Source: a virus
Virus record (IMG/VR): IMGVR_UViG_3300025237_000001
Coordinates: 32,001 to 96,000 of that record
DNA: 64,000 bases
Direction: 5' to 3' (one strand)
Part shown: piece by piece, positions 12,301 to 61,564 of the stretch
How positions within the stretch are numbered: the first letter of the stretch is position 1
How the letters are laid out: each line of letters begins with the position of its first letter
Notes under the pieces: model-generated
What the model was told of the DNA's origin: nothing
Databases searched by the model: none
Seen by the model: only the letters and a program-made list of their open reading frames with translations
Position numbers and translations under genes: made by a program

Positions 12301-12727
12301 GATTAATTTTATATTCAATAACACCGTCTTTATGTATTACACCAAATGTTACATGAGTGTCTTCACCATTAGCCATATCACAACCTATGATATATTTAGG
12401 TTTATTATATTTTAATAAGTCATACGATTTTCGATAACTAGCAGTAATTAAATTTAATACTCTAGTTTCAACATCTTTAGGAAAGTTTTTTTTAAATATT
12501 GCAGTCTTACACCTTGTAAACCATAACTTATAAAAAGTTTCTGTCATATTTTTGGTATGTGATAGGTCATCCATAGCATAGTTGAAGTTTACTAGAATTT
12601 TCCCAACTGACTTCGTTGTGCTTTTATTATTTAAATCAGTTAGTATTTGAGCTAAGTCAATTGCACATTGTGAACTACCATATGTGTTCTTGTCAACTTC
12701 ACCACGATTTGATTGTTTATATTTCAT
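12287..12727 (-). CDS. hypothetical protein
   Basis: 146-aa ORF; no motif recognised. Confidence 0.6.
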   Translation of the reverse strand: MKYKQSNRGEVDKNTYGSSQCAIDLAQILTDLNNKSTTKSVGKILVNFNYAMDDLSHTKNMTETFYKLWFTRCKTAIFKKNFPKDVETRVLNLITASYRKSYDLLKYNKPKYIIGCDMANGEDTHVTFGVIHKDGVIEYKINHDDV

Positions 12728-12740
12728 GTGACAATATTAC

Positions 12741-12777
12741 AAAAAAAAAGGGAGAAAACCTAATTTTCTCCCTTTTT
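12741..12777. terminator. intrinsic terminator with A/T runs on both sides, after the vWA gene
   Basis: AAAAAGGGAGAAAA-cctaa-TTTTCTCCCTTTTT, perfect 14-bp stem. Confidence 0.85.
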
Positions 12778-12798
12778 AATATATTTTAATTCTTAATC

Positions 12799-13440
12799 TT
12801 AAGAATCACTACCCGTATCTGAATCTGAATCAACTAAGTTTTCAGTTTGTACATCATTATCAATCACACTAGCAAAATACAATGATTTTGACATGTTTCT
12901 TGAAACACTAGCTAAAGTTGTACCAACACCACTATCAGCGTATTGGAACGTATTGCTACGGCTAATACCTAGATTCACTGCACTTTCAATTGCACCTTCT
13001 GTTGTTCCCATAAAGGTTAATCCCCATTCTTTTTTCTTAGCTTTTTTAAGAAGCTTTTGAACATCTGTTTGGGTAAACTCTTTGGAATCATTTTCACCAC
13101 CATCGGTAAGAATACTTACGAACACACCGTCTTGTTTTTTACCTACAAGACCAAAACTTTGTCCGATTGCATCATATAGAGCAGTCATACCATTTGGTCT
13201 GTAATTGTCAGCACTTTCATAAGTGATGTTTTTTCTTTTTGAAGAGTCTAATAAAACTGTAAACTTTCCAGCAGATGAAAACTGCGAAACTATAGTTCTA
13301 ATTTTAGCATCACCCTTTGTTTTTTTCATATCCTTTCTGACATCCTTAAGTAAGTCTTTAAGACCACCTTGCACTTCTTGTGTTTTGCTACTCATACTTG
13401 AACTAGCATCTACGATAATTAAATTTGTAATTTTTTTCAT
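12799..13440 (-). CDS. von Willebrand factor A (vWA) domain protein
   Basis: MIDAS DASSSM, GMTALYDAIG, ILTDGGENDSKEF. Confidence 0.9.
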   Translation of the reverse strand: MKKITNLIIVDASSSMSSKTQEVQGGLKDLLKDVRKDMKKTKGDAKIRTIVSQFSSAGKFTVLLDSSKRKNITYESADNYRPNGMTALYDAIGQSFGLVGKKQDGVFVSILTDGGENDSKEFTQTDVQKLLKKAKKKEWGLTFMGTTEGAIESAVNLGISRSNTFQYADSGVGTTLASVSRNMSKSLYFASVIDNDVQTENLVDSDSDTGSDS

Positions 13441-13525
13441 TTTGTAATATTTTAAGATTTGTTAATAATTGTAATTATACTATTTTTTTATTATATAAAC
13501 AAGTATTAAACAATGTTATTAGTAA

Positions 13526-13540
13526 AACGTGATTAAACTA
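13526..13540 (+). repeat. left arm of a perfect 15-bp inverted repeat (partner at 14608-14622)
   Basis: AACGTGATTAAACTA at 13526-13540; TAGTTTAATCACGTT at 14608-14622. Confidence 0.9.
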
Positions 13541-13545
13541 ATTAT

Positions 13546-14520
13546 TTATTGTTGTTTACCGCAAAATGCGCAAAACTTTGTTTTACATCTACCACCACAA
13601 TTTGTGCAATGCTTAGTGTAATAATCAACCGAAGTTAATTGTTTTTGTGATTTAGGTGATAACTTATACTTAATGATATGGAATGACATCATTTCGAAGT
13701 CACCCGAAGCCTCACGTAAATCTTGTTTAGAATTTGAACCCTTTTCAACTCTACCAGTTTCAATTGTAGTTGGTGTAGCGTTACTCGCTGTGGTTGTTCT
13801 ACGTCTCTTACCTTTAAGATTTTTAGATTTTAAGGATTGGTCCTTTTCATTGGTTAAAGTTATACCTCTTGTTGCGATGTTACCATCGACACTTAAATCA
13901 CCCTTTATATTTACATCACCATCAATAGTTAAAGAAGCTGCATTTGATTCACCTCTTACGGGAATAAATATATCTTCGTTTATATTCAATTGATTATAAC
14001 CACCAGTTGACGTTGTTAAAGTTGAATTACCCAAAGTGTATGTTCCACTGCTACTGTCAACGAAACCTACATTAGTAGTTCCGAATTGGTCACTATCAAA
14101 ACAATCCAATGTAACGGTCCCACTTGACCCAAAATGTTGGAAAAATGGAATTTCTTCAACTTCCTTAAAGAAAGCGATTTCTACATCACCGTTAGGTTCG
14201 ATAGCTTTTTTAGCACTCTTCGTATTATCTACGTTATAAGTGTCAAATAAGAACTTCTTATTTGTGTCTAAAAATCTATCAAGAAATACTCTCTCACCTG
14301 GTCTTATTACTAAGCCACCTGAAATTGGTTTGTTGTTTAATTTAATTGTTGTTAGTATTTTACCCTGAGTCGGGTTAAATAGTTCGATTTGGAATTCTTG
14401 TCCTTTTTCCAAATAGTATGAAGGAATAGTCTTACTCTTCCCATACTTTTTAATCCTACTTTTATTAATAGCAAGATTTGCTGTAGGCTTTTTATCGCCC
14501 GAAGTTTTCTTTATTTTCAT
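13546..14520 (-). CDS. phage protein with beta-rich N-domain, low-complexity middle and C-terminal zinc ribbon
   Basis: GQEFQIELFNP...GGLVIRPGERVFLDRF...FLFDTY; ends CTNCG...KFCAFCG. Confidence 0.8.
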   Translation of the reverse strand: MKIKKTSGDKKPTANLAINKSRIKKYGKSKTIPSYYLEKGQEFQIELFNPTQGKILTTIKLNNKPISGGLVIRPGERVFLDRFLDTNKKFLFDTYNVDNTKSAKKAIEPNGDVEIAFFKEVEEIPFFQHFGSSGTVTLDCFDSDQFGTTNVGFVDSSSGTYTLGNSTLTTSTGGYNQLNINEDIFIPVRGESNAASLTIDGDVNIKGDLSVDGNIATRGITLTNEKDQSLKSKNLKGKRRRTTTASNATPTTIETGRVEKGSNSKQDLREASGDFEMMSFHIIKYKLSPKSQKQLTSVDYYTKHCTNCGGRCKTKFCAFCGKQQ

Positions 14521-14607
14521 AATTATTTTTAATTTAAAATTAATGTGCAGATATTTTCGTTACCATTTGATAACTCTAAAGTCGAATACGACTCAAGACC
14601 AACACGC

Positions 14608-14622
14608 TAGTTTAATCACGTT
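14608..14622 (-). repeat. right arm of the 15-bp inverted repeat, at the predicted transcript 5' end
   Basis: Exact reverse complement of 13526-13540. Confidence 0.9.
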
Positions 14623-14631
14623 ATATAATTA

Positions 14632-14659
14632 AATATACGAAAAATTAAAAAAAAGTCAA
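14632..14659 (-). promoter_or_regulatory. promoter of the 13546-14520 gene
   Basis: Minus strand TTGACT-16 nt-TATATT; same TTGACT...CGTATATTT form as 3954-3982. Confidence 0.6.
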
Positions 14660-14683
14660 TAGGTTTGTAAAAAAAGTTTTGAA

Positions 14684-16102
14684 TTAACCAATTCTTTCGT
14701 CAACTTGGTTCACAATATCAAAAGTAATTACGTTTTTAAGTGTTGATACTTCGTAGCTTGATTTTGCTTTAATATCGAGGTAATACCTTTGTGGTACTAG
14801 ACTTGCGGTATCCAATAAAAAATAATTATGGTTGAATGCAATCTCAACTGACGTATAATCAATTACAGTATATTCAGCGTTACCTTCTTTAATATAAATT
14901 CTATATTCTAAGGCATCTAAAACTTCTTGTTCGTTAACTGTATAAGGGACTCTAGCAGAAATTCTAATTTTTCTAACATCACCTCTGTTGATTTTTTCCT
15001 TGTCTTTAACTCCAGATACATTAAATGTAAAATCTAATGGGATTGAAGTATCAGAACCAAGACCATAATATTCACCAGCGTCCTTCAATTCAAATTCCAT
15101 TTCAATATCGGGTCTAGTAACACCGTTGATTACAACTCCTGACCAAACGTCTTCATATAGTACACAACCAATTGAAGTTGTTGGTACCATTAAATCGATT
15201 GAATAAACTCCTTGAGATATGTGAGTGATACCACTACTAGTAATAGCTGAAAATACATCACCTGAATTATCTAATATTGATACGCTCATACCTGACATAA
15301 CATCAACGTCTGTAGGTATTCCACCAACATTAACATATAAATAAAGTTTATTATTTTTATCTAGATAGAATTTACCTCTATCATCGTTGATTGTTTCTGA
15401 ATATCTACTTTCTACATAAGGTTCATAGAAAGTTTGTGTATGTCGAGTAAAGAACCCAACGTATTTTAAATTATCTAAGACATCATTTTCACGAGCCTCA
15501 TCAAATGCGATTCCTAACCCATTGTTAGTATCACCTGTTAAATATGCATTTACAATGTCAGTAACATCCATTTCAAGATTTTCATTACCATCTTCAAAGT
15601 GTTGTGTTACTAAGGTTTGTCCAGTCCATCCAGAGAATACACCACTACCATTAGCCCAAACAGTACCTGTCTCCGCTTCAATCCAATTTGAAGCAGCATT
15701 GCTATATACTGACGAATCAGATGAAGTGAAATATTTTTGACCAGCAAAATCATAACCCACACCTTCATCCCAAGGTTGGTTAACTGCAAATAAGTTTAAG
15801 TTGAAAGATGATGTTCTATCTTTACCATCACCAGTTTCTTTACTTAGTAAAGAATCATCGAATGTCCCAGTATTGGTCATTCTAAGTGTGTGTTTTAATT
15901 TAGATAAATCAGGATACATACCTTTATCTCTAAACGCTTCGATTCTTGAGGTATCGAATTGAAAGATATATCTTGTGAATAGTGGATTTTCAGTTGTCCA
16001 CACACCACCGTAAAATAATTCAGCTACAGGGTTTTTACCTGTATTGGTATTATCATTGTAAACCAGTGTGTTATTTCTATCGAAGTATGTTCTTAGTACC
16101 AT
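14684..16102 (-). CDS. virion structural protein (beta-rich, DNRLRE-like N-domain, Ig-like C-domains)
   Basis: 472 aa; TRYIFQFD...MDVTDIVNAYL..NNGLGI..FFTRHTQT pattern; TATTTATA upstream. Confidence 0.55.
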   Translation of the reverse strand: MVLRTYFDRNNTLVYNDNTNTGKNPVAELFYGGVWTTENPLFTRYIFQFDTSRIEAFRDKGMYPDLSKLKHTLRMTNTGTFDDSLLSKETGDGKDRTSSFNLNLFAVNQPWDEGVGYDFAGQKYFTSSDSSVYSNAASNWIEAETGTVWANGSGVFSGWTGQTLVTQHFEDGNENLEMDVTDIVNAYLTGDTNNGLGIAFDEARENDVLDNLKYVGFFTRHTQTFYEPYVESRYSETINDDRGKFYLDKNNKLYLYVNVGGIPTDVDVMSGMSVSILDNSGDVFSAITSSGITHISQGVYSIDLMVPTTSIGCVLYEDVWSGVVINGVTRPDIEMEFELKDAGEYYGLGSDTSIPLDFTFNVSGVKDKEKINRGDVRKIRISARVPYTVNEQEVLDALEYRIYIKEGNAEYTVIDYTSVEIAFNHNYFLLDTASLVPQRYYLDIKAKSSYEVSTLKNVITFDIVNQVDERIG

Positions 16103-31348: not shown

Positions 31349-32988
31349 TTTATAATTTCTTTATACTCTTCTATTATTTGTGTGACAACATTTTCACTTT
31401 TATATTTGTCAACATCTGTAGGGACTGGGTGTAATTTCTTACCCAATACAATCCCCTTATCGTCAACATCATATATCCAACCAGCTTTACCACATAACCA
31501 ACCTTCAATTGTTGTCCTACCTAATAGGATTCCAGCGGTTTCGGTACATTGGTTGATATAATTCTCAACCTTTCTTTGTACTCCATGATACGTTACGTGA
31601 GTGTCACTATCATTTATAAGACTATCAACGGTTACACCATTTTCTTTTCCTATAACCCATAGTTTACTTCCTTCTTTTTTGGTTCTTTCAATTAAATCAG
31701 ATAACATATTTTTCCTTAAGTAATCAATAGTTCCAACAAACAAAGTAATTTTTTCATCAATGAGCGTATCTTTTGGTTGAAATCTATTCGTGTCAATTGG
31801 GTTATAAATAACGCTTATCTTTTCTTCAGGTATGTCATAACCTGAAGTGATAAAATCTTTTATCTCAGGTCTAATTGCAATATATTTCTTAATATTATCA
31901 TGTACTACTGGATGCTCTAAAGATATTACTTCAGAGTGTATTGAAGCTATCGCTGGGATTTCAGGGTATAATTGTAACATTAAGTTGGTTACAGGTGTGT
32001 GGTTTAAATGCATTATATCAAAATTAGCTGGTGCCATTTTATATAATTTATTTTCTACTGATTTTTCTAAAGTACCATCTGGTTTTTGGATTTGCCATTT
32101 ACCATCACCTTTTTTAAAACCTAAAGGTTCTTCTATATTTGATAATTTGATTCCAGCTTGTTTAGCTTTAAACGCTAACTCACCACCTATTCTAGAACAT
32201 ATGGTAACCTCACAACCTCTTTCAACTAACCCCTTAGCTAACTCATAATTATATAATTCAGAACCAGTTAAGCCATTAAAATTAAGGCAAGCAATCAATA
32301 CTTTAAACTTATGATTATCCTTGAACACTTTATCTATTTTTAACGGTAAAGAATCTTTATACTTTTCAGCAAATAGAACTCTATTTTCTTCCCACTGCTC
32401 GTTGGTTTCACCGATTGACATGTGGTTGATACTAATGTTAGTGTGAACACCAACTTTAACACCTTCTAAACGATTTCTTAAACAAAAATCTAGGTCATAG
32501 AAATGAAAACCTTCAACAGATTCATCAAAATCTTTTTTAAGTCTAGACTTCATTACTGAAAAGAATACACCATCAACTACTGCGGTTTCTTCAATACCAG
32601 TCCCTTGGTCATCACTATATTTAGATTGACGTTTTTTACCTAAATGTGTATGCCATACACGACCAATCATTTTTCTTGGGTCTGCCCACCATTTACCGCT
32701 TTCATCTAAAACTTTAGTTCCAGCAACACCTAAAATACCATAATCGGTATTATCAAAATGTTTCTTGATTTTTCTAGCGAATTGTTTTGTTTGAACCTCA
32801 ATATCGTCATGACAAAAAACCACGATATCGTGGTCTGCTTGTTTTAATAATTCATTGTAAGAAACTGTTAAAGATTCCCCATTATTAATTCGTTCAATAA
32901 CTTGAACTTTAGGGTGTCCCGCCATTTTCTTTAAATGGTCAATATGTTTTTGATTATGTTCTCTTGTACAATATACGATTGTTATCAT
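31345..32988 (-). CDS. bifunctional glycosyltransferase: N-terminal GT2-like (Glyco_tranf_2_5) plus C-terminal GT-B (GT4-like)
   Basis: VVFCHDD...VVDGVFFS..FDESVEGFHFYDLDFC; then GLTGSELYNYELAKGL..VIYNPIDTNRF..GRTTIEGWLCGK. Confidence 0.85.
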   Translation of the reverse strand: MITIVYCTREHNQKHIDHLKKMAGHPKVQVIERINNGESLTVSYNELLKQADHDIVVFCHDDIEVQTKQFARKIKKHFDNTDYGILGVAGTKVLDESGKWWADPRKMIGRVWHTHLGKKRQSKYSDDQGTGIEETAVVDGVFFSVMKSRLKKDFDESVEGFHFYDLDFCLRNRLEGVKVGVHTNISINHMSIGETNEQWEENRVLFAEKYKDSLPLKIDKVFKDNHKFKVLIACLNFNGLTGSELYNYELAKGLVERGCEVTICSRIGGELAFKAKQAGIKLSNIEEPLGFKKGDGKWQIQKPDGTLEKSVENKLYKMAPANFDIMHLNHTPVTNLMLQLYPEIPAIASIHSEVISLEHPVVHDNIKKYIAIRPEIKDFITSGYDIPEEKISVIYNPIDTNRFQPKDTLIDEKITLFVGTIDYLRKNMLSDLIERTKKEGSKLWVIGKENGVTVDSLINDSDTHVTYHGVQRKVENYINQCTETAGILLGRTTIEGWLCGKAGWIYDVDDKGIVLGKKLHPVPTDVDKYKSENVVTQIIEEYKEIIK

Positions 32989-57501: not shown

Positions 57502-58020
57502 ATGAGTAATAAAAGAAAAATACCGATTAAAAGAATTAATAAATTCTTCTCTGGAAGAGACTTCGATTTGGAAGTTCAAATGGGTCGTGAGGCAATGGAA
57601 GGTGATGGTAATTTTACTGTCATACTATATCGAGTTGATAGAGCTACAACCCAAGTTGACGATTTATATGGTGAGGCTAGTGCGGATGAAATTAATTATT
57701 TAGCACCAGTTGAATTATATGTGATTCCTATCATAGACGAAGCAACCAATGAAACATATGCAAAAGGTTTCCTAAATAATTTAGAAGATGGAAATATGAC
57801 ATTTATAGTTTACGTTGAACATTTGTCTGAATTAGATGTTGATATTACTATGGGAGATTACGTAGCTTATCCTATCAATGAAACAGATGTTGTTTATTAT
57901 TCTGTGACCAATGCTGGTCAAAAAAATTACGACAATGCCCATACAATAATGGGGTATAAAGGTGCATACAGAAAGGTTACATGTACTTTTGCTAACGAAG
58001 ATGAATTTAAAGGAATATAA
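57502..58020 (+). CDS. neck/head-tail joining protein (gp14-like)
   Basis: DDLYGE...PVEL...TFIVYVEHL..GDY; start moved to MSNKRK downstream of TATTTAT. Confidence 0.5.
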   Translation: MSNKRKIPIKRINKFFSGRDFDLEVQMGREAMEGDGNFTVILYRVDRATTQVDDLYGEASADEINYLAPVELYVIPIIDEATNETYAKGFLNNLEDGNMTFIVYVEHLSELDVDITMGDYVAYPINETDVVYYSVTNAGQKNYDNAHTIMGYKGAYRKVTCTFANEDEFKGI

Positions 58021-58023
58021 ATT

Positions 58024-58767
58024 ATGCCACTACCAAAAGGTTTTAGAAAAAATGTAAAGTTTATTAATCAAAACATCGGTCCTGAAAAAAGACAAGACAT
58101 TCTTGATGATATAGATTATAAGGGTATGTACTTACCTAAAGGGGTTGATTACGAAGATATTGATAGAGGATTTCTTGATTTCACGGATGATGAATTATCT
58201 GTTGAAGTTGATGGTAATTCAGTACCAGTAAGATTTTTAACACTACAAAGATTTGCTGAATTCAGTAAAACTTGGACATTTTCAGATAAATTTAAAAATC
58301 TAAAGATGCCTTTCATTACCGTAGTTAGACAACCTGATATTCAAGTTGGTACTAACCAAGCGGGTATATGGAATATTCCAGGTCAACAGGTTTATACATA
58401 TATGAAAATACCTAACCTTGTAGGTGGTGTAAAGGGTATTGACACCTATAAGATTCCACAACCAACTTCAGTCGATATTACATATGATGTAAGATTCTTT
58501 TGTAATAGAATGAGGGATTTAAACATATTACACAAAGTAGTTCAAACGACATTTAATTCTAGACAATTTTACATTACAGTAAATGGACATCCAATGCCTA
58601 TTCACTTAGAGAAAATTGGTGATGAAAGTCAAGTTGATGACTTTGATAAAAGAAGATTTTACGTTCAACATTTCGAAATGAAGATATTGGGGTATATATT
58701 AGATGAGGACGATTTTGAATTTATACCAACCATTAATAGAGGTAATATAAAATTTACCGAACAATAA
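58024..58767 (+). CDS. tail completion/terminator protein (gp15-like), copy 1
   Basis: KMPFITVVR, PQPTSVDITYDVRF; context next to the neck gene. Confidence 0.5.
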   Translation: MPLPKGFRKNVKFINQNIGPEKRQDILDDIDYKGMYLPKGVDYEDIDRGFLDFTDDELSVEVDGNSVPVRFLTLQRFAEFSKTWTFSDKFKNLKMPFITVVRQPDIQVGTNQAGIWNIPGQQVYTYMKIPNLVGGVKGIDTYKIPQPTSVDITYDVRFFCNRMRDLNILHKVVQTTFNSRQFYITVNGHPMPIHLEKIGDESQVDDFDKRRFYVQHFEMKILGYILDEDDFEFIPTINRGNIKFTEQ

Positions 58768-58774
58768 TTAAATT

Positions 58775-59806
58775 ATGCCACAAGGATATAAAAAAGATGT
58801 AAAGTTTATTAATCAAAATGTTGGTCCTGAAAAAAGACAAGACATTCTTGATGATATAGATTATAAAGGAAGTTACTTACCTAAAAGTATCTATTACGAA
58901 GATATTGATAAAACATTTCTTGATTTTATTGATAATATTCTAGAGATAGAGATTAATGGGGTGAAGGTGCCTGTCTATTTTTTTACAATACAAAGATTTG
59001 CTGAATTCAGTAAATTGTGGGATACTTCAGATAAATTTAAAAATGTTAAAATTCCATTCATTACCGTAGTTAGACAACCTGATATTCAAGTTGGTACTAA
59101 CCAAGCGGGTATATGGAATATTCCAGGTCATAAATTATACACCTATATGAAGGTACCTAATTTTGTTGGTGGTCGTGGTGGGGTTGATTTATACAAGATT
59201 CCACAACCAACTTCAGTCGATGTAACATATGATGTAAGATTCTTTTGTAATAGAATGAGGGATTTAAATATGTTTAATAGAAAGACACAATTTACTTTCC
59301 AATCAAGACAATATTATATAAACGTTGGTGGACATCCAATGCCTATTCACTTAGAGAAAATTGGTGACGAGAGTCAAGTTGATGATTTCGATAGAAGAAG
59401 ATTTTACGTTCAACACTTCGAAATGAAGGTTCTTGGATATATATTAGATGAAGACGATTTTGAATTTGTACCAACTGTAAATAGAATGATAGTGTTTACA
59501 GAATTAATGGATAAGACGATTAAACCTAAGATTGTAATTAGGTCATTTAAAGATATTGATGAAATATGTTTAAATGTTGTAATAAAAGCTGACCATTTTA
59601 GTGATGAGTTTATAATTACTATGATATATGATGCGGAGATAACTTCATTAACATTTGTTAAGAATGTTACAAACGTTAATATAGCAATAAATGGGGTTCA
59701 ACAAACATTCCCCTTTACTATCACAGCTAATCAACAAATGGTTTTAACCGTTGATAGAGACGAAAGTAATGAGTCTAAATTTCAAATAATTGGAATTGTT
59801 AAATAA
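58775..59806 (+). CDS. tail completion/terminator protein (gp15-like), copy 2 with an ~95-aa C-terminal extension
   Basis: Co-linear with 58024-58767 over ~240 aa. Confidence 0.5.
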   Translation: MPQGYKKDVKFINQNVGPEKRQDILDDIDYKGSYLPKSIYYEDIDKTFLDFIDNILEIEINGVKVPVYFFTIQRFAEFSKLWDTSDKFKNVKIPFITVVRQPDIQVGTNQAGIWNIPGHKLYTYMKVPNFVGGRGGVDLYKIPQPTSVDVTYDVRFFCNRMRDLNMFNRKTQFTFQSRQYYINVGGHPMPIHLEKIGDESQVDDFDRRRFYVQHFEMKVLGYILDEDDFEFVPTVNRMIVFTELMDKTIKPKIVIRSFKDIDEICLNVVIKADHFSDEFIITMIYDAEITSLTFVKNVTNVNIAINGVQQTFPFTITANQQMVLTVDRDESNESKFQIIGIVK

Positions 59807-59827
59807 AATTGATATAATAGAATAAAA

Positions 59828-60790
59828 ATGAGTGATGTTAATAAAACATATGTATTTGAGACAGTATTAATTAGTGGTACAACTGGTACTACTGCCGAGT
59901 ATATAACTGGTGCTACTTTTAATCCTACTACAGGTGATTTAAATTTAGAAACAGTTTCTGGAAATACAATTACTACTAATTTTGATGGTAGGTATTCCTT
60001 AACGGGGCATACTCATGATGATTTATATTCCTTAACAGGACATACTCATGATGATTTATATTCCTTAACAGGACATACTCATGATGATTTATATTCCTTA
60101 ACAGGACATACTCATACCATATCTGAAATAGTTGATTTTCCAACTTCCTTATCCGCATTTACTAATGATGAAGGTTTTATTACTGAAGATACTAACGATT
60201 TTGTAACAGGAGCAACATTTAACACATTAACTGGTGAATTTATTTTAACTACACTTTCAGGTAATACGGTAAGTGAAACTCTAGATGGTAGGTATTTATT
60301 ATCTGATGATTACACACCAAGTGATTCTAACACCGATGATTATGTAACTGGAGGTACATTTAATAATGAAATATTAGAATTTACTAGATTATCAGGTGCA
60401 ACATTTAATATTGATTTATCTAACACATATTCTCTTACAGGACATACTCATACCATGTCTGAAATAGTTGATTTTTCTGGTTCAACAGCTAATGATTACA
60501 CTACTACTGCTGAGCTTACTAGTGGTAACACTTTAAATTTCACAAGATTATCAGGTGGTACATATAATGTTGTTTTAACTGGTTTAACAGGTACTGTTGC
60601 TGGACCAATTACTTTTTCTGCGGAAACACTTAGTGGTACTACAACATATGTTGGTTATGGGGAGGTTAATGCTTGTAAAATTAGGAGAATTATTACTTCT
60701 TCTGGGACTACATATTCAGCATTTTGGTCCAATGGTGAAGAAACTTTAGATAAATTTTGGGCAAATAGATATAGTTATGGGTATTTTTAA
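59828..60790 (+). CDS. fibre-like virion protein with His-x-His repeats
   Basis: DYVTG.TFN modules shared with 38732/40775; SLTGHTH occurs five times. Confidence 0.68.
   Translation: MSDVNKTYVFETVLISGTTGTTAEYITGATFNPTTGDLNLETVSGNTITTNFDGRYSLTGHTHDDLYSLTGHTHDDLYSLTGHTHDDLYSLTGHTHTISEIVDFPTSLSAFTNDEGFITEDTNDFVTGATFNTLTGEFILTTLSGNTVSETLDGRYLLSDDYTPSDSNTDDYVTGGTFNNEILEFTRLSGATFNIDLSNTYSLTGHTHTMSEIVDFSGSTANDYTTTAELTSGNTLNFTRLSGGTYNVVLTGLTGTVAGPITFSAETLSGTTTYVGYGEVNACKIRRIITSSGTTYSAFWSNGEETLDKFWANRYSYGYF
59993..60115 (+). repeat. 33-bp tandem repeat (3.7 copies) encoding YSLTGHTHDDL
   Basis: TATTCCTTAACAGGACATACTCATGATGATTTA units at 59993, 60026, 60059 and partial 60092; the first unit has 2 synonymous changes. 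Confidence 0.92.
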
Positions 60791-60829
60791 TTAAAATACC
60801 CATATTTATAAGAAAGTATAAATTATTAA

Positions 60830-61564
60830 ATGAAAGCATTTCCAATAAGTCAAGATTTAGATGTTATACAAGCAGAAGTTGACTTAAATACAGCTAAGGT
60901 AACTGATTTAGTTCATCCACTTGTAGAGACAGCAGTTCCGTTAGGGGCTTTGTTCACTGATACAATTTATGATGACTCCGCTATACAAGCGGAAGTTGAC
61001 TTAAATACAGATAAAGTGACTGATTTAGTTCATCCATTGGTTGAAACGGCAGTGCCTATTGGAGCCTTATTTACTGATACAGTTTATGATGATGCAACAA
61101 TACAAGCAGAAGTTGACTTAAATACAGCTAAAGTAACTGATTTAGTTCACCCATTGGTTGAAACAGCGGTGCCTATTGGCGCATTATTCACTGATACAGT
61201 TTACGATGACTCTAATACATTAGTTGATTCAGACGCAAAAACTTTAGTAACTCCTACTAATAAATTAATTACAGAGGATGATGTTATTTCGGTTGCATCT
61301 ATGTTTGAAGTTGAAATAGATGTGGGTGCTACACCAGTATCAGAAGCAAGTATTTCAGTAACAGATGCCTCTATAACAACTAGCTCTAAAATACTTGGTA
61401 GTGTGGCTTATTTAGCCCCTACTGGGAAAGATTTAGACGAGATAGAAATGGATACTTTTGATTTAAAATTTGAACCATTGGTGGGTAGTTTCAATCTTAA
61501 GATTAAAGGATTAGAAGGGTATATAGCAGATAAATTCAAAATTAACTATTCCGTTTCAGTATAA
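60830..61564 (+). CDS. virion protein with three 39-aa tandem repeats
   Basis: IQAEVDLNT.KVTDLVHPLVETAVP.GALFTDT.YDD three times. Confidence 0.72.
   Translation: MKAFPISQDLDVIQAEVDLNTAKVTDLVHPLVETAVPLGALFTDTIYDDSAIQAEVDLNTDKVTDLVHPLVETAVPIGALFTDTVYDDATIQAEVDLNTAKVTDLVHPLVETAVPIGALFTDTVYDDSNTLVDSDAKTLVTPTNKLITEDDVISVASMFEVEIDVGATPVSEASISVTDASITTSSKILGSVAYLAPTGKDLDEIEMDTFDLKFEPLVGSFNLKIKGLEGYIADKFKINYSVSV
60866..61210 (+). repeat. 117-bp tandem repeat, 3 copies
   Basis: Units start at 60866, 60983 and 61100; mostly synonymous divergence. Confidence 0.9.

Follow-up and report, generated by a model that had tools for sequence, protein, structure and literature searches.

The stretch of DNA analyzed here (the window) comprises 64,000 nucleotides (nt), positions 32,001 to 96,000 of IMG/VR virus record IMGVR_UViG_3300025237_000001, a single 197,358-bp phage record with 32% G+C that is estimated to be about 56% complete and has among its genes one for a T4-type major capsid protein and one for a family B DNA polymerase. 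An earlier note, made from the sequence alone, had pointed to a gene of 324 amino acids (aa) that is enclosed, together with its leader, by a perfect 15-bp inverted repeat, and had proposed either that the ends of the mRNA pair or that the segment is an invertible DNA element. We confirmed that the two arms, AACGTGATTAAACTA (13526-13540) and TAGTTTAATCACGTT (14608-14622), are exact reverse complements. As the open reading frame (ORF) of 324 aa lies on the minus strand, 14608-14622 is the upstream (5') arm, here named E5, and 13526-13540 is the downstream (3') arm, here named E3. The features of the locus are the following.

14632-14659, minus strand: sigma-70-type promoter, with -35 box TTGACT (14659-14654), a 16-nt spacer and -10 box TATATT (14637-14632); 10 of 12 matches
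14608-14622, minus strand: 5' arm (E5), AACGUGAUUAAACUA, located no more than a few nt from the predicted transcript start; predicted to pair with the 3' arm
14613-14620, minus strand: E5 bases CGUGAUUA, with an alternative predicted pairing to the start region
14545-14605, minus strand: three-way-junction leader, predicted by RNAalifold from 81 leaders
14518-14525, minus strand: start region UAAUUAUG, with the start codon at 14518-14520; alternative partner of E5 according to the leader-only fold and clade covariation
13546-14520, minus strand: gene of 324 aa, from the ORF list, protein comparison and structure prediction
13526-13540, minus strand: 3' arm (E3), UAGUUUAAUCACGUU, with its onset 6 nt after the TAA stop codon (5-nt spacer)
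13490-13519, minus strand: promoter-like site of the next gene (213 aa), from a promoter scan

E5 starts 9 nt after the TATATT hexamer, where the earlier note had given about 10 nt, and lies 87 nt ahead of the ATG, while the 5-nt spacer between the TAA and E3 is as had been described. Beyond the perfect 15 bp, the duplex in the window extends to 25 bp at 84% complementarity.

The placement of the inverted repeat exceeds chance

Perfect 15-bp inverted repeats with arms no more than 3 kb apart occur four times in the genome, and longer ones do not occur, so that the length of the repeat alone is at chance level and proves nothing. Neither arm was found elsewhere in the 197,358-bp genome, even allowing one mismatch, and the repeat is therefore not a repeated motif. 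We compared the upstream 130 nt with the downstream 50 nt of each of the 220 genes in the genome, and the 324-aa gene ranked best in flank complementarity, with a score of 31 (median 14, 95th percentile 19). The placement of the repeat, unlike its length, thus exceeds chance, and the earlier claim that this placement is hard to attribute to chance holds.

The two arms covary in relatives of the 324-aa gene

Metagenomes contain more than 1600 homologues of the protein, the longest of the contigs that carry them being 381 kb, and the only annotated phages carrying one are Lak megaphages and other huge phages. A total of 316 loci, collected via the protein or the leader pattern and never via the arms, yielded 112 distinct flank pairs. 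The helix is present at the canonical two places in 77 of these 112 distinct loci, corresponding to 60 arm haplotypes, with perfect runs of 6-15 bp (median 11 bp) and core helices mostly of 10-12 bp. It is positioned at about -100 to -110 from the ATG, and the 3' arm begins 5-21 nt past the stop codon, most commonly at 12 nt.

Close relatives, with proteins only 55-72% identical, have a leader and a 3' arm nearly identical to those of the window, and one of them carries an A-to-G change in the 5' arm by which a G-U pair is retained. In distant relatives, the arms differ from those of the window yet match each other (ACGUUAACUC with GAGUUAACGU; UGCGUUAACUA with UAGUUAACGCA; UGUGUUAACUC with GAGUUAACACA; AUCGUGAUUGA with UCAAUCACGAU; UUGUAUGAUUAACAUU with its own complement), and remote clades have unrelated arms (GAAACCUUGUU with AACAAGGUUUC; GACCUUGUGGUU with AACCACAAGGUC), the helix of locus L094 measuring 17-25 bp.

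A score of at least 20 was reached by 80% of cognate flank pairs, versus 21% of non-cognate pairs and 3% of pairs with shuffled 3' flanks; when its own 3' flank was set against that of another haplotype, the own flank won 2351 times and lost 136 times. Each of the positions around the invariant central UUAA shows 3-4 Watson-Crick pair types. In the register anchored on UUAA, 88.4% of cells are paired; 1000 permutations averaged 69.6% and never went above 75.3%. When a single representative stood for each of 11 arm types, 10 of the types had the cognate 3' arm as their best partner (mean -17.4 versus -7.2 kcal/mol). RNAalifold on concatenated arm alignments returned no structure, as indels shift the arms out of register, and the anchor-based pair table was used instead. 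Folding of the full-length 1109-nt RNA of the window placed a 16-bp terminal helix in both the minimum free energy (MFE) and the centroid structure.

Judged by this comparison with relatives, the inverted repeat is under selection, and the complementarity of both ends is preserved through compensatory change. The compensatory changes in the arms of homologous loci that the earlier note had suggested looking for are present, spread over the 77 loci and 60 arm haplotypes.

The arms lie at the predicted ends of a transcript with a structured leader

Relatives share a CTTGAC(A)-16/17-TATATT block, with the -10 box in 64 of 67 loci and a -35-like box in 67 of 72. The perfect helix begins 5-6 nt after the conserved -10 box of this predicted promoter in 47 of 72 loci, and since the conserved promoter ends 5-6 nt before the helix, the helix would start at about +1. 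On the other side, 55 of 67 loci have a predicted terminator, made of a hairpin and a T-run, beyond the 3' arm and separated from it by a median of 7 nt. From these signals we infer the transcript ends. Pairing of the mRNA ends, the first proposal of the earlier note, is supported by these positions, with the arms at the predicted +1 and in the gap between stop codon and terminator, together with their covariation in 77 of 112 loci. Isolated non-Watson-Crick positions inside the helices, counted over haplotypes that are partly related, are G-U in 7 cases and A-C in 1, an excess that modestly points to sense RNA. The promoter of the 324-aa gene is of the classical TTGACA/TATATT type and not of the Bacteroidota type.

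The leader of 85 nt between E5 and the ATG is predicted to fold into a three-way junction. In the window, this is composed of a closing stem (14596-14605/14545-14552) and two hairpins, GAGUCG/CGACUU (14579-14594) and GUUAUC/GGUAAC (14559-14574). Analysis of 81 leaders by RNAalifold revealed covariation with 2-3 pair types at most positions, for example GC 49/CG 30, GC 48/AU 17/UA 16 or UA 60/CG 20, and such abundant compensatory changes indicate that the leader region works as RNA. The junction exists in one copy in the genome and always precedes a gene of the 324-aa-type family. A search of 12500-15500 with Rfam cmscan (E value up to 10) returned nothing at 13520-14630 except two chance-level matches in the coding sequence. 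We consider the predicted three-way junction a well-supported new RNA motif.

Two further observations concern the leader. The single-stranded UUUAGAG between the two leader hairpins is conserved. In L081/L188, a lineage without a 3' arm, a hairpin (UUUCAGAAA...UUUCUGAAA) is inserted between the 5' element and the closing stem of the junction.

E5 has a predicted second partner in the translation start region

The 5' element is retained in loci without a 3' arm and must therefore have another role. We found that E5 is complementary to the start region, either 8-12 nt ahead of the AUG or spanning the AUG, with a pair type that depends on the clade. UUAACU is matched with AGUUAA in 48 distinct loci, CGUGAUUA with UAAUUAUG in 8 including the window, and GUUAAG with CUUAA in 5, CUUAA never being found in the 60 loci of the UUAAC type. 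The other types, CCUUGUU with AAUAAGG, CCUUAA with UUAAGG, ACCUUGU with AUAAGGU, CCUUU with AAAGG and CUCGU with ACGAG, belong to clades with a Shine-Dalgarno (SD)-like start region. The AATTATG start region accompanies 13 of 17 GATT-type arms versus 4 of 64 GTTAAC-type arms, in counts uncorrected for phylogeny. A first test of E5 against the start region, with a 5' segment that still included the AT-rich promoter, gave no cognate advantage (13.04 versus 13.05); with the 5' segment restricted to the transcribed part, the threshold was reached by 88% of cognate, 63% of non-cognate and 30% of shuffled pairs.

In the window, the CGUGAUUA:UAAUUAUG helix comprises 8 bp, including two G-U pairs. The panhandle, which involves the same bases, is more stable by about 12 kcal/mol. 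CGUGAUUA is paired with UAAUUAUG in the MFE and centroid structures when the leader is folded on its own, and the full-length fold shows the panhandle instead. Across loci, the median duplex energy is -4.9 kcal/mol for E5 with the translation initiation region (TIR) and -16.3 kcal/mol for E5 with E3, E3 being the stronger partner in 76 of 77 loci. The E5 bases that pair with the TIR lie wholly within the E3 helix in 64 of 77 loci, and there the two pairings are mutually exclusive.

In clades of the non-palindromic type, the 3' arm looks like an extended version of the start region (UAAUCACG and UAAUUAUG; AACAAGG and AAUAAGG), and this resemblance would make it compete for the 5' element instead of blocking the start site. 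SD-like 4-mers precede the start codon in 9 of 220 genes, below the level of random 14-mers (9%), and with SD sequences so scarce in this genome initiation should depend on an unstructured start region. Among the consequences of end pairing that the earlier note had listed, the best fit is translational feedback from the 3' end, since E5 has a second complementarity, to the start region.

A local hairpin of 3-4 bp around the UUAAC core (ACGU...ACGU) was considered and rejected; although many loci allow it to be drawn, it does not keep a constant register and finds no support in the pair counts. It may at most represent a possible metastable intermediate.

A putative switch that ties translation to an intact 3' end

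We think it rather likely that the repeat reflects, at the DNA level, a long-range RNA helix under selection, part of a three-partner switch that ties translation to an intact 3' end. E5, the first 10-16 nt of a monocistronic phage mRNA, would pair with E3 beyond the stop codon and close the mRNA of about 1.1 kb into a panhandle. In a transcript that is incomplete or trimmed at its 3' end, E5 would fold back onto the start region across the junction and hinder binding of the 30S subunit. Once transcribed, and for as long as it is undegraded, E3 would capture E5 as an extended look-alike of the start region, which would be freed, so that translation would be tied to the presence of the intact 3' end. 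A by-product would be that the 5'-terminal bases are held in a duplex, an arrangement that in bacteria gives protection against 5'-end-dependent decay. That translation would be switched on by the 3' end, and that stability may change, are predictions of this proposal. If it is true, only mRNAs retaining their 3' end are translated, and unfinished or 3'-trimmed transcripts silence themselves. More tentatively, and with somewhat less confidence than in the switch, we suggest that it may be a prokaryotic counterpart of the eukaryotic closed-loop check, in which a 5' anti-start sequence would block the ribosome until a decoy in the 3' untranslated region (UTR) captures it.

Several points weigh against the switch. 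About 30% of the loci have no recognisable 3' arm and nonetheless keep the 5' element, which means that the gene can do without the 3' arm. Short and AU-rich, the E5:TIR helix is also weak, the leader fold of the window is no better than that of shuffled sequences (z = -0.9), and no more than 6 of 11 clade-level types have the cognate start region as best partner. As the core of the largest clade, GUUAAC, is palindromic, E3 could pair with the start region too. In the sub-clade of the window, the interval from the 3' arm to the promoter-like site of the next gene contains no hairpin terminator. Finally, the G-U versus A-C count is small and comes from partly related haplotypes, and the covariation and pairing statistics take no account of phylogeny.

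We regard it as unlikely, although deserving attention, that the panhandle serves stability only, with a helix that buries the 5'-terminal nucleotides and slows 5'-end-dependent decay and with a functionless match between E5 and the start region. The onset of the helix at the predicted +1 in most loci and the weakness of the E5:TIR helices fit this explanation, and 5'-terminal base pairing reportedly stabilises bacterial mRNAs (work of Emory, Bouvet and Belasco in 1992). In addition, a 14-bp pairing of the 5' UTR with the 3' UTR modulates cleavage of the Bacillus subtilis hbs leader by RNase Y (PMC5737220). However, a role in stability alone leaves unexplained why the E5:TIR pair type shifts between clades in step with E5, and why clades without a 3' arm keep E5 together with its start-region match. 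It is improbable that the duplex, possibly stacked on the closing stem of the leader, is a site for RNase III, which would cut it to trim both mRNA ends in the way known from rRNA precursor stems. The extended 25-bp duplex of the window would be in favor of such a site, but the core helices of mostly 10-12 bp are short for the enzyme, the conservation pattern shows no cleavage motif, and no RNase III domain was found in the 197-kb phage record, although a host enzyme could act. Pairing of 3' and 5' UTRs does make an RNase III substrate in icaR (PMC3868564).

The invariant and palindromic arm centre (TTAA; GTTAAC in most loci) resembles many operator half-sites, as would be expected of inverted regulator binding sites or of a looping element around the gene. 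We nevertheless consider such a role at the DNA level highly improbable, since the arms are wholly different between clades and their boundaries shift with complementarity kept, G-U exceeds A-C by 7 to 1, both arms fall within the predicted transcription unit, and the third match, a G-U-containing one at the start codon, has no explanation in DNA. Slightly less probable still is an intrinsic terminator in the window sub-clade, with the long-range helix as its stem and a U run behind it (CACGUUUU). The window has no hairpin terminator after the gene, and 4-8 U follow the 3' arm in L014, L010, L001, L002 and L102, but L016, L097 and L096 of the same sub-clade have no U run, and in most clades an ordinary terminator lies 7 nt beyond the arm. 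We rejected the panhandle as a terminator stem on this inconsistency of the U run within the sub-clade, and we know of no terminator with a 1-kb loop. The least credible explanation is the second proposal of the earlier note, an invertible cassette (inverton) that flips the ORF relative to an outside promoter. Its geometry fits, as the repeats flank gene and leader with the promoter outside, but the arms covary and differ completely between clades, where a recombinase site would stay conserved. Moreover, the -10 box precedes the 5' arm in 64 and the terminator follows the 3' arm in 55 of the 67 tested helix loci, no inverted copy was seen among these 67 (assemblies show the majority form only), and gene order is stable, with the upstream 472-aa gene as syntenic neighbour in 137 of 177 loci. 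The observation that no recombinase is encoded in the window extends to the whole 197-kb record (about 56% complete), where neither Resolvase (PF00239) nor Phage_integrase (PF00589) domains were found, while control genomes score. A mobile cassette was rejected on the same synteny with the 472-aa neighbour.

The 324-aa protein and its genomic surroundings

The protein had no match in Pfam, PHROG or NCBIfam, and Foldseek against the PDB returned nothing at E <= 0.001; VIA-align gave only generic immunoglobulin (Ig)-like sandwiches (Z <= 7.2) and the ESM Atlas only viral hypothetical zinc-ribbon clusters. AlphaFold predicts a beta-sandwich at the N-terminus, with strands from the C-terminus completing it, a middle that is disordered, and a zinc ribbon at the end, the conserved C-terminal domain ending in CxxC...CxxC. 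The middle third, residues about 126-248 (window 13777-14145), is hypervariable, of low complexity (G/S/T/N-rich) and of variable length, with both ends of the protein conserved. At the DNA level, the leader and the 3' arm are better conserved than the middle part of the coding sequence.

Insertions seem to be tolerated just upstream of the promoter. In L010 (5112-5831), and also in L011-L013 (72% protein identity), an extra 239-aa gene on the opposite strand lies between the 472-aa gene and the promoter, a spot that corresponds to 14623-14683 of the window, and more distant loci have 0.5-1.5 kb between the 472-aa gene and the 324-aa-type gene. Two loci of huge phages showed other peculiarities. 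The homologue of Prevotella phage Lak-A1 (L176, MK250016.1, 1492-2310) is open only with TAG read as a residue (code 15) and meets a stop after 9 codons under code 11; no clear pair of 5' and 3' arms was seen in this locus. In a 462-kb phage (L175, LR756500.1; 30% protein identity), the flanks of 1477-2310 hold two complementary pairs, UGUUAAGG/CCUUAACA and CUCACUUUGUU/AACAAAGUGAG, in an order that precludes one continuous helix; they may be alternatives or a pseudoknot-like arrangement.

Elsewhere in the window, long direct repeats 745 nt apart, with up to 74 nt identical, occupy 58010-61150 (genome 90010-93150), and 33-nt and 117-nt periodic repeats in the same region indicate tandemly duplicated genes and internal repeats in the gene block 58024-61564. 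Outside the window, repeated segments of the GGTTCGAATCCC type at genome positions 195244-197057 suggest a tRNA gene cluster near the end of the record.

Comparison with known systems

To our knowledge, end-to-end pairing in bacterial-type mRNAs is limited to a handful of cases (hok, aapA, icaR and hbs), mostly single loci, and in the translational cases among them it is the 3' end that represses. In hok of plasmid R1 and in aapA1/aapA3 of Helicobacter pylori, the full-length folded mRNA is inert and trimming of its 3' end activates translation, and these folds, with their alternative and metastable partners, were first inferred from coupled covariations (PMC6733600). Similarly, the two ends of one mRNA are predicted to pair in the phage gene, and the pairing would decide access to the start site. 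Unlike in hok and aapA, the phage 3' element is predicted to free the start site and not to lock the full-length mRNA, the gene belongs to large phages and encodes 324 aa instead of a small toxic peptide, and no antisense RNA is known for it; our promoter scan found no convincing promoter-like site on the opposite strand within the unit. The locus thus lacks the combination that defines type I toxins, an ORF for a small toxic peptide with a cis antisense RNA, and it also lacks their inert lock, as E3 in the non-palindromic clades mimics the start region and would compete for E5.

The MS2 maturation gene has a leader in which initiation is repressed by pairing of the SD sequence, across a cloverleaf, with a complementary sequence upstream, a structure supported by covariation (PMC4615214). 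The corresponding arrangement is present here, since a 5'-proximal segment is complementary to the ribosome binding region across a covarying three-way junction in at least 5 clade types, and in both cases the pairing spans a multi-helix junction. MS2, an RNA genome, relieves the repression kinetically during RNA synthesis, whereas the mRNA of this double-stranded DNA phage would have a dedicated 3' UTR decoy of higher affinity. In Staphylococcus aureus, the 3' UTR of icaR mRNA blocks the SD sequence and creates an RNase III site, which leads to repression (PMC3868564). The predicted interaction of the phage mRNA is likewise an intramolecular one between 3' and 5' UTRs, but its 3' UTR pairs with the anti-start element and should activate. 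The 14-bp helix of hbs mRNA links mRNA stability to translation and modulates RNase Y cleavage in the leader (PMC5737220). It is similar in length to the phage helix and joins, as predicted here, the 5' and 3' UTRs of a monocistronic mRNA, a short one in the case of hbs; unlike in the phage case, occlusion of the start site by the same 5' segment is not described for it. In the rpoS leader, an inhibitory helix that hides the start site is opened by DsrA or RprA, which capture the inhibitory strand. The activator of rpoS is a separate small RNA, whereas that of the phage gene would be built into the 3' UTR of its own mRNA. We found no earlier description of a phage mRNA panhandle in the literature; a catalogue of more than 10,000 candidate viral RNA structures (PMC10690425) may list the leader.

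The predicted device is conserved across a very large gene family of large and huge phages from many habitats, its carriers being uncultured large phages of marine, freshwater and gut origin with relatives that include the Lak megaphages. With more than 1600 homologous proteins, 112 distinct loci and 60 arm haplotypes, the comparison has a depth that is usual only for riboswitches, and it illustrates how a comparison of gene flanks finds long-range pairs that are missed by motif searches limited to intergenic regions. The complementarities predict a reverse logic, with the 3' UTR as a built-in activator, which would offer a compact system for coupling translation to transcript integrity without a cap or a poly(A) tail. 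In conclusion, the phage case combines an MS2-type leader with a putative 3' UTR decoy, and this combination predicts an effect of opposite sign to that of the 3' end in hok, aapA and icaR.

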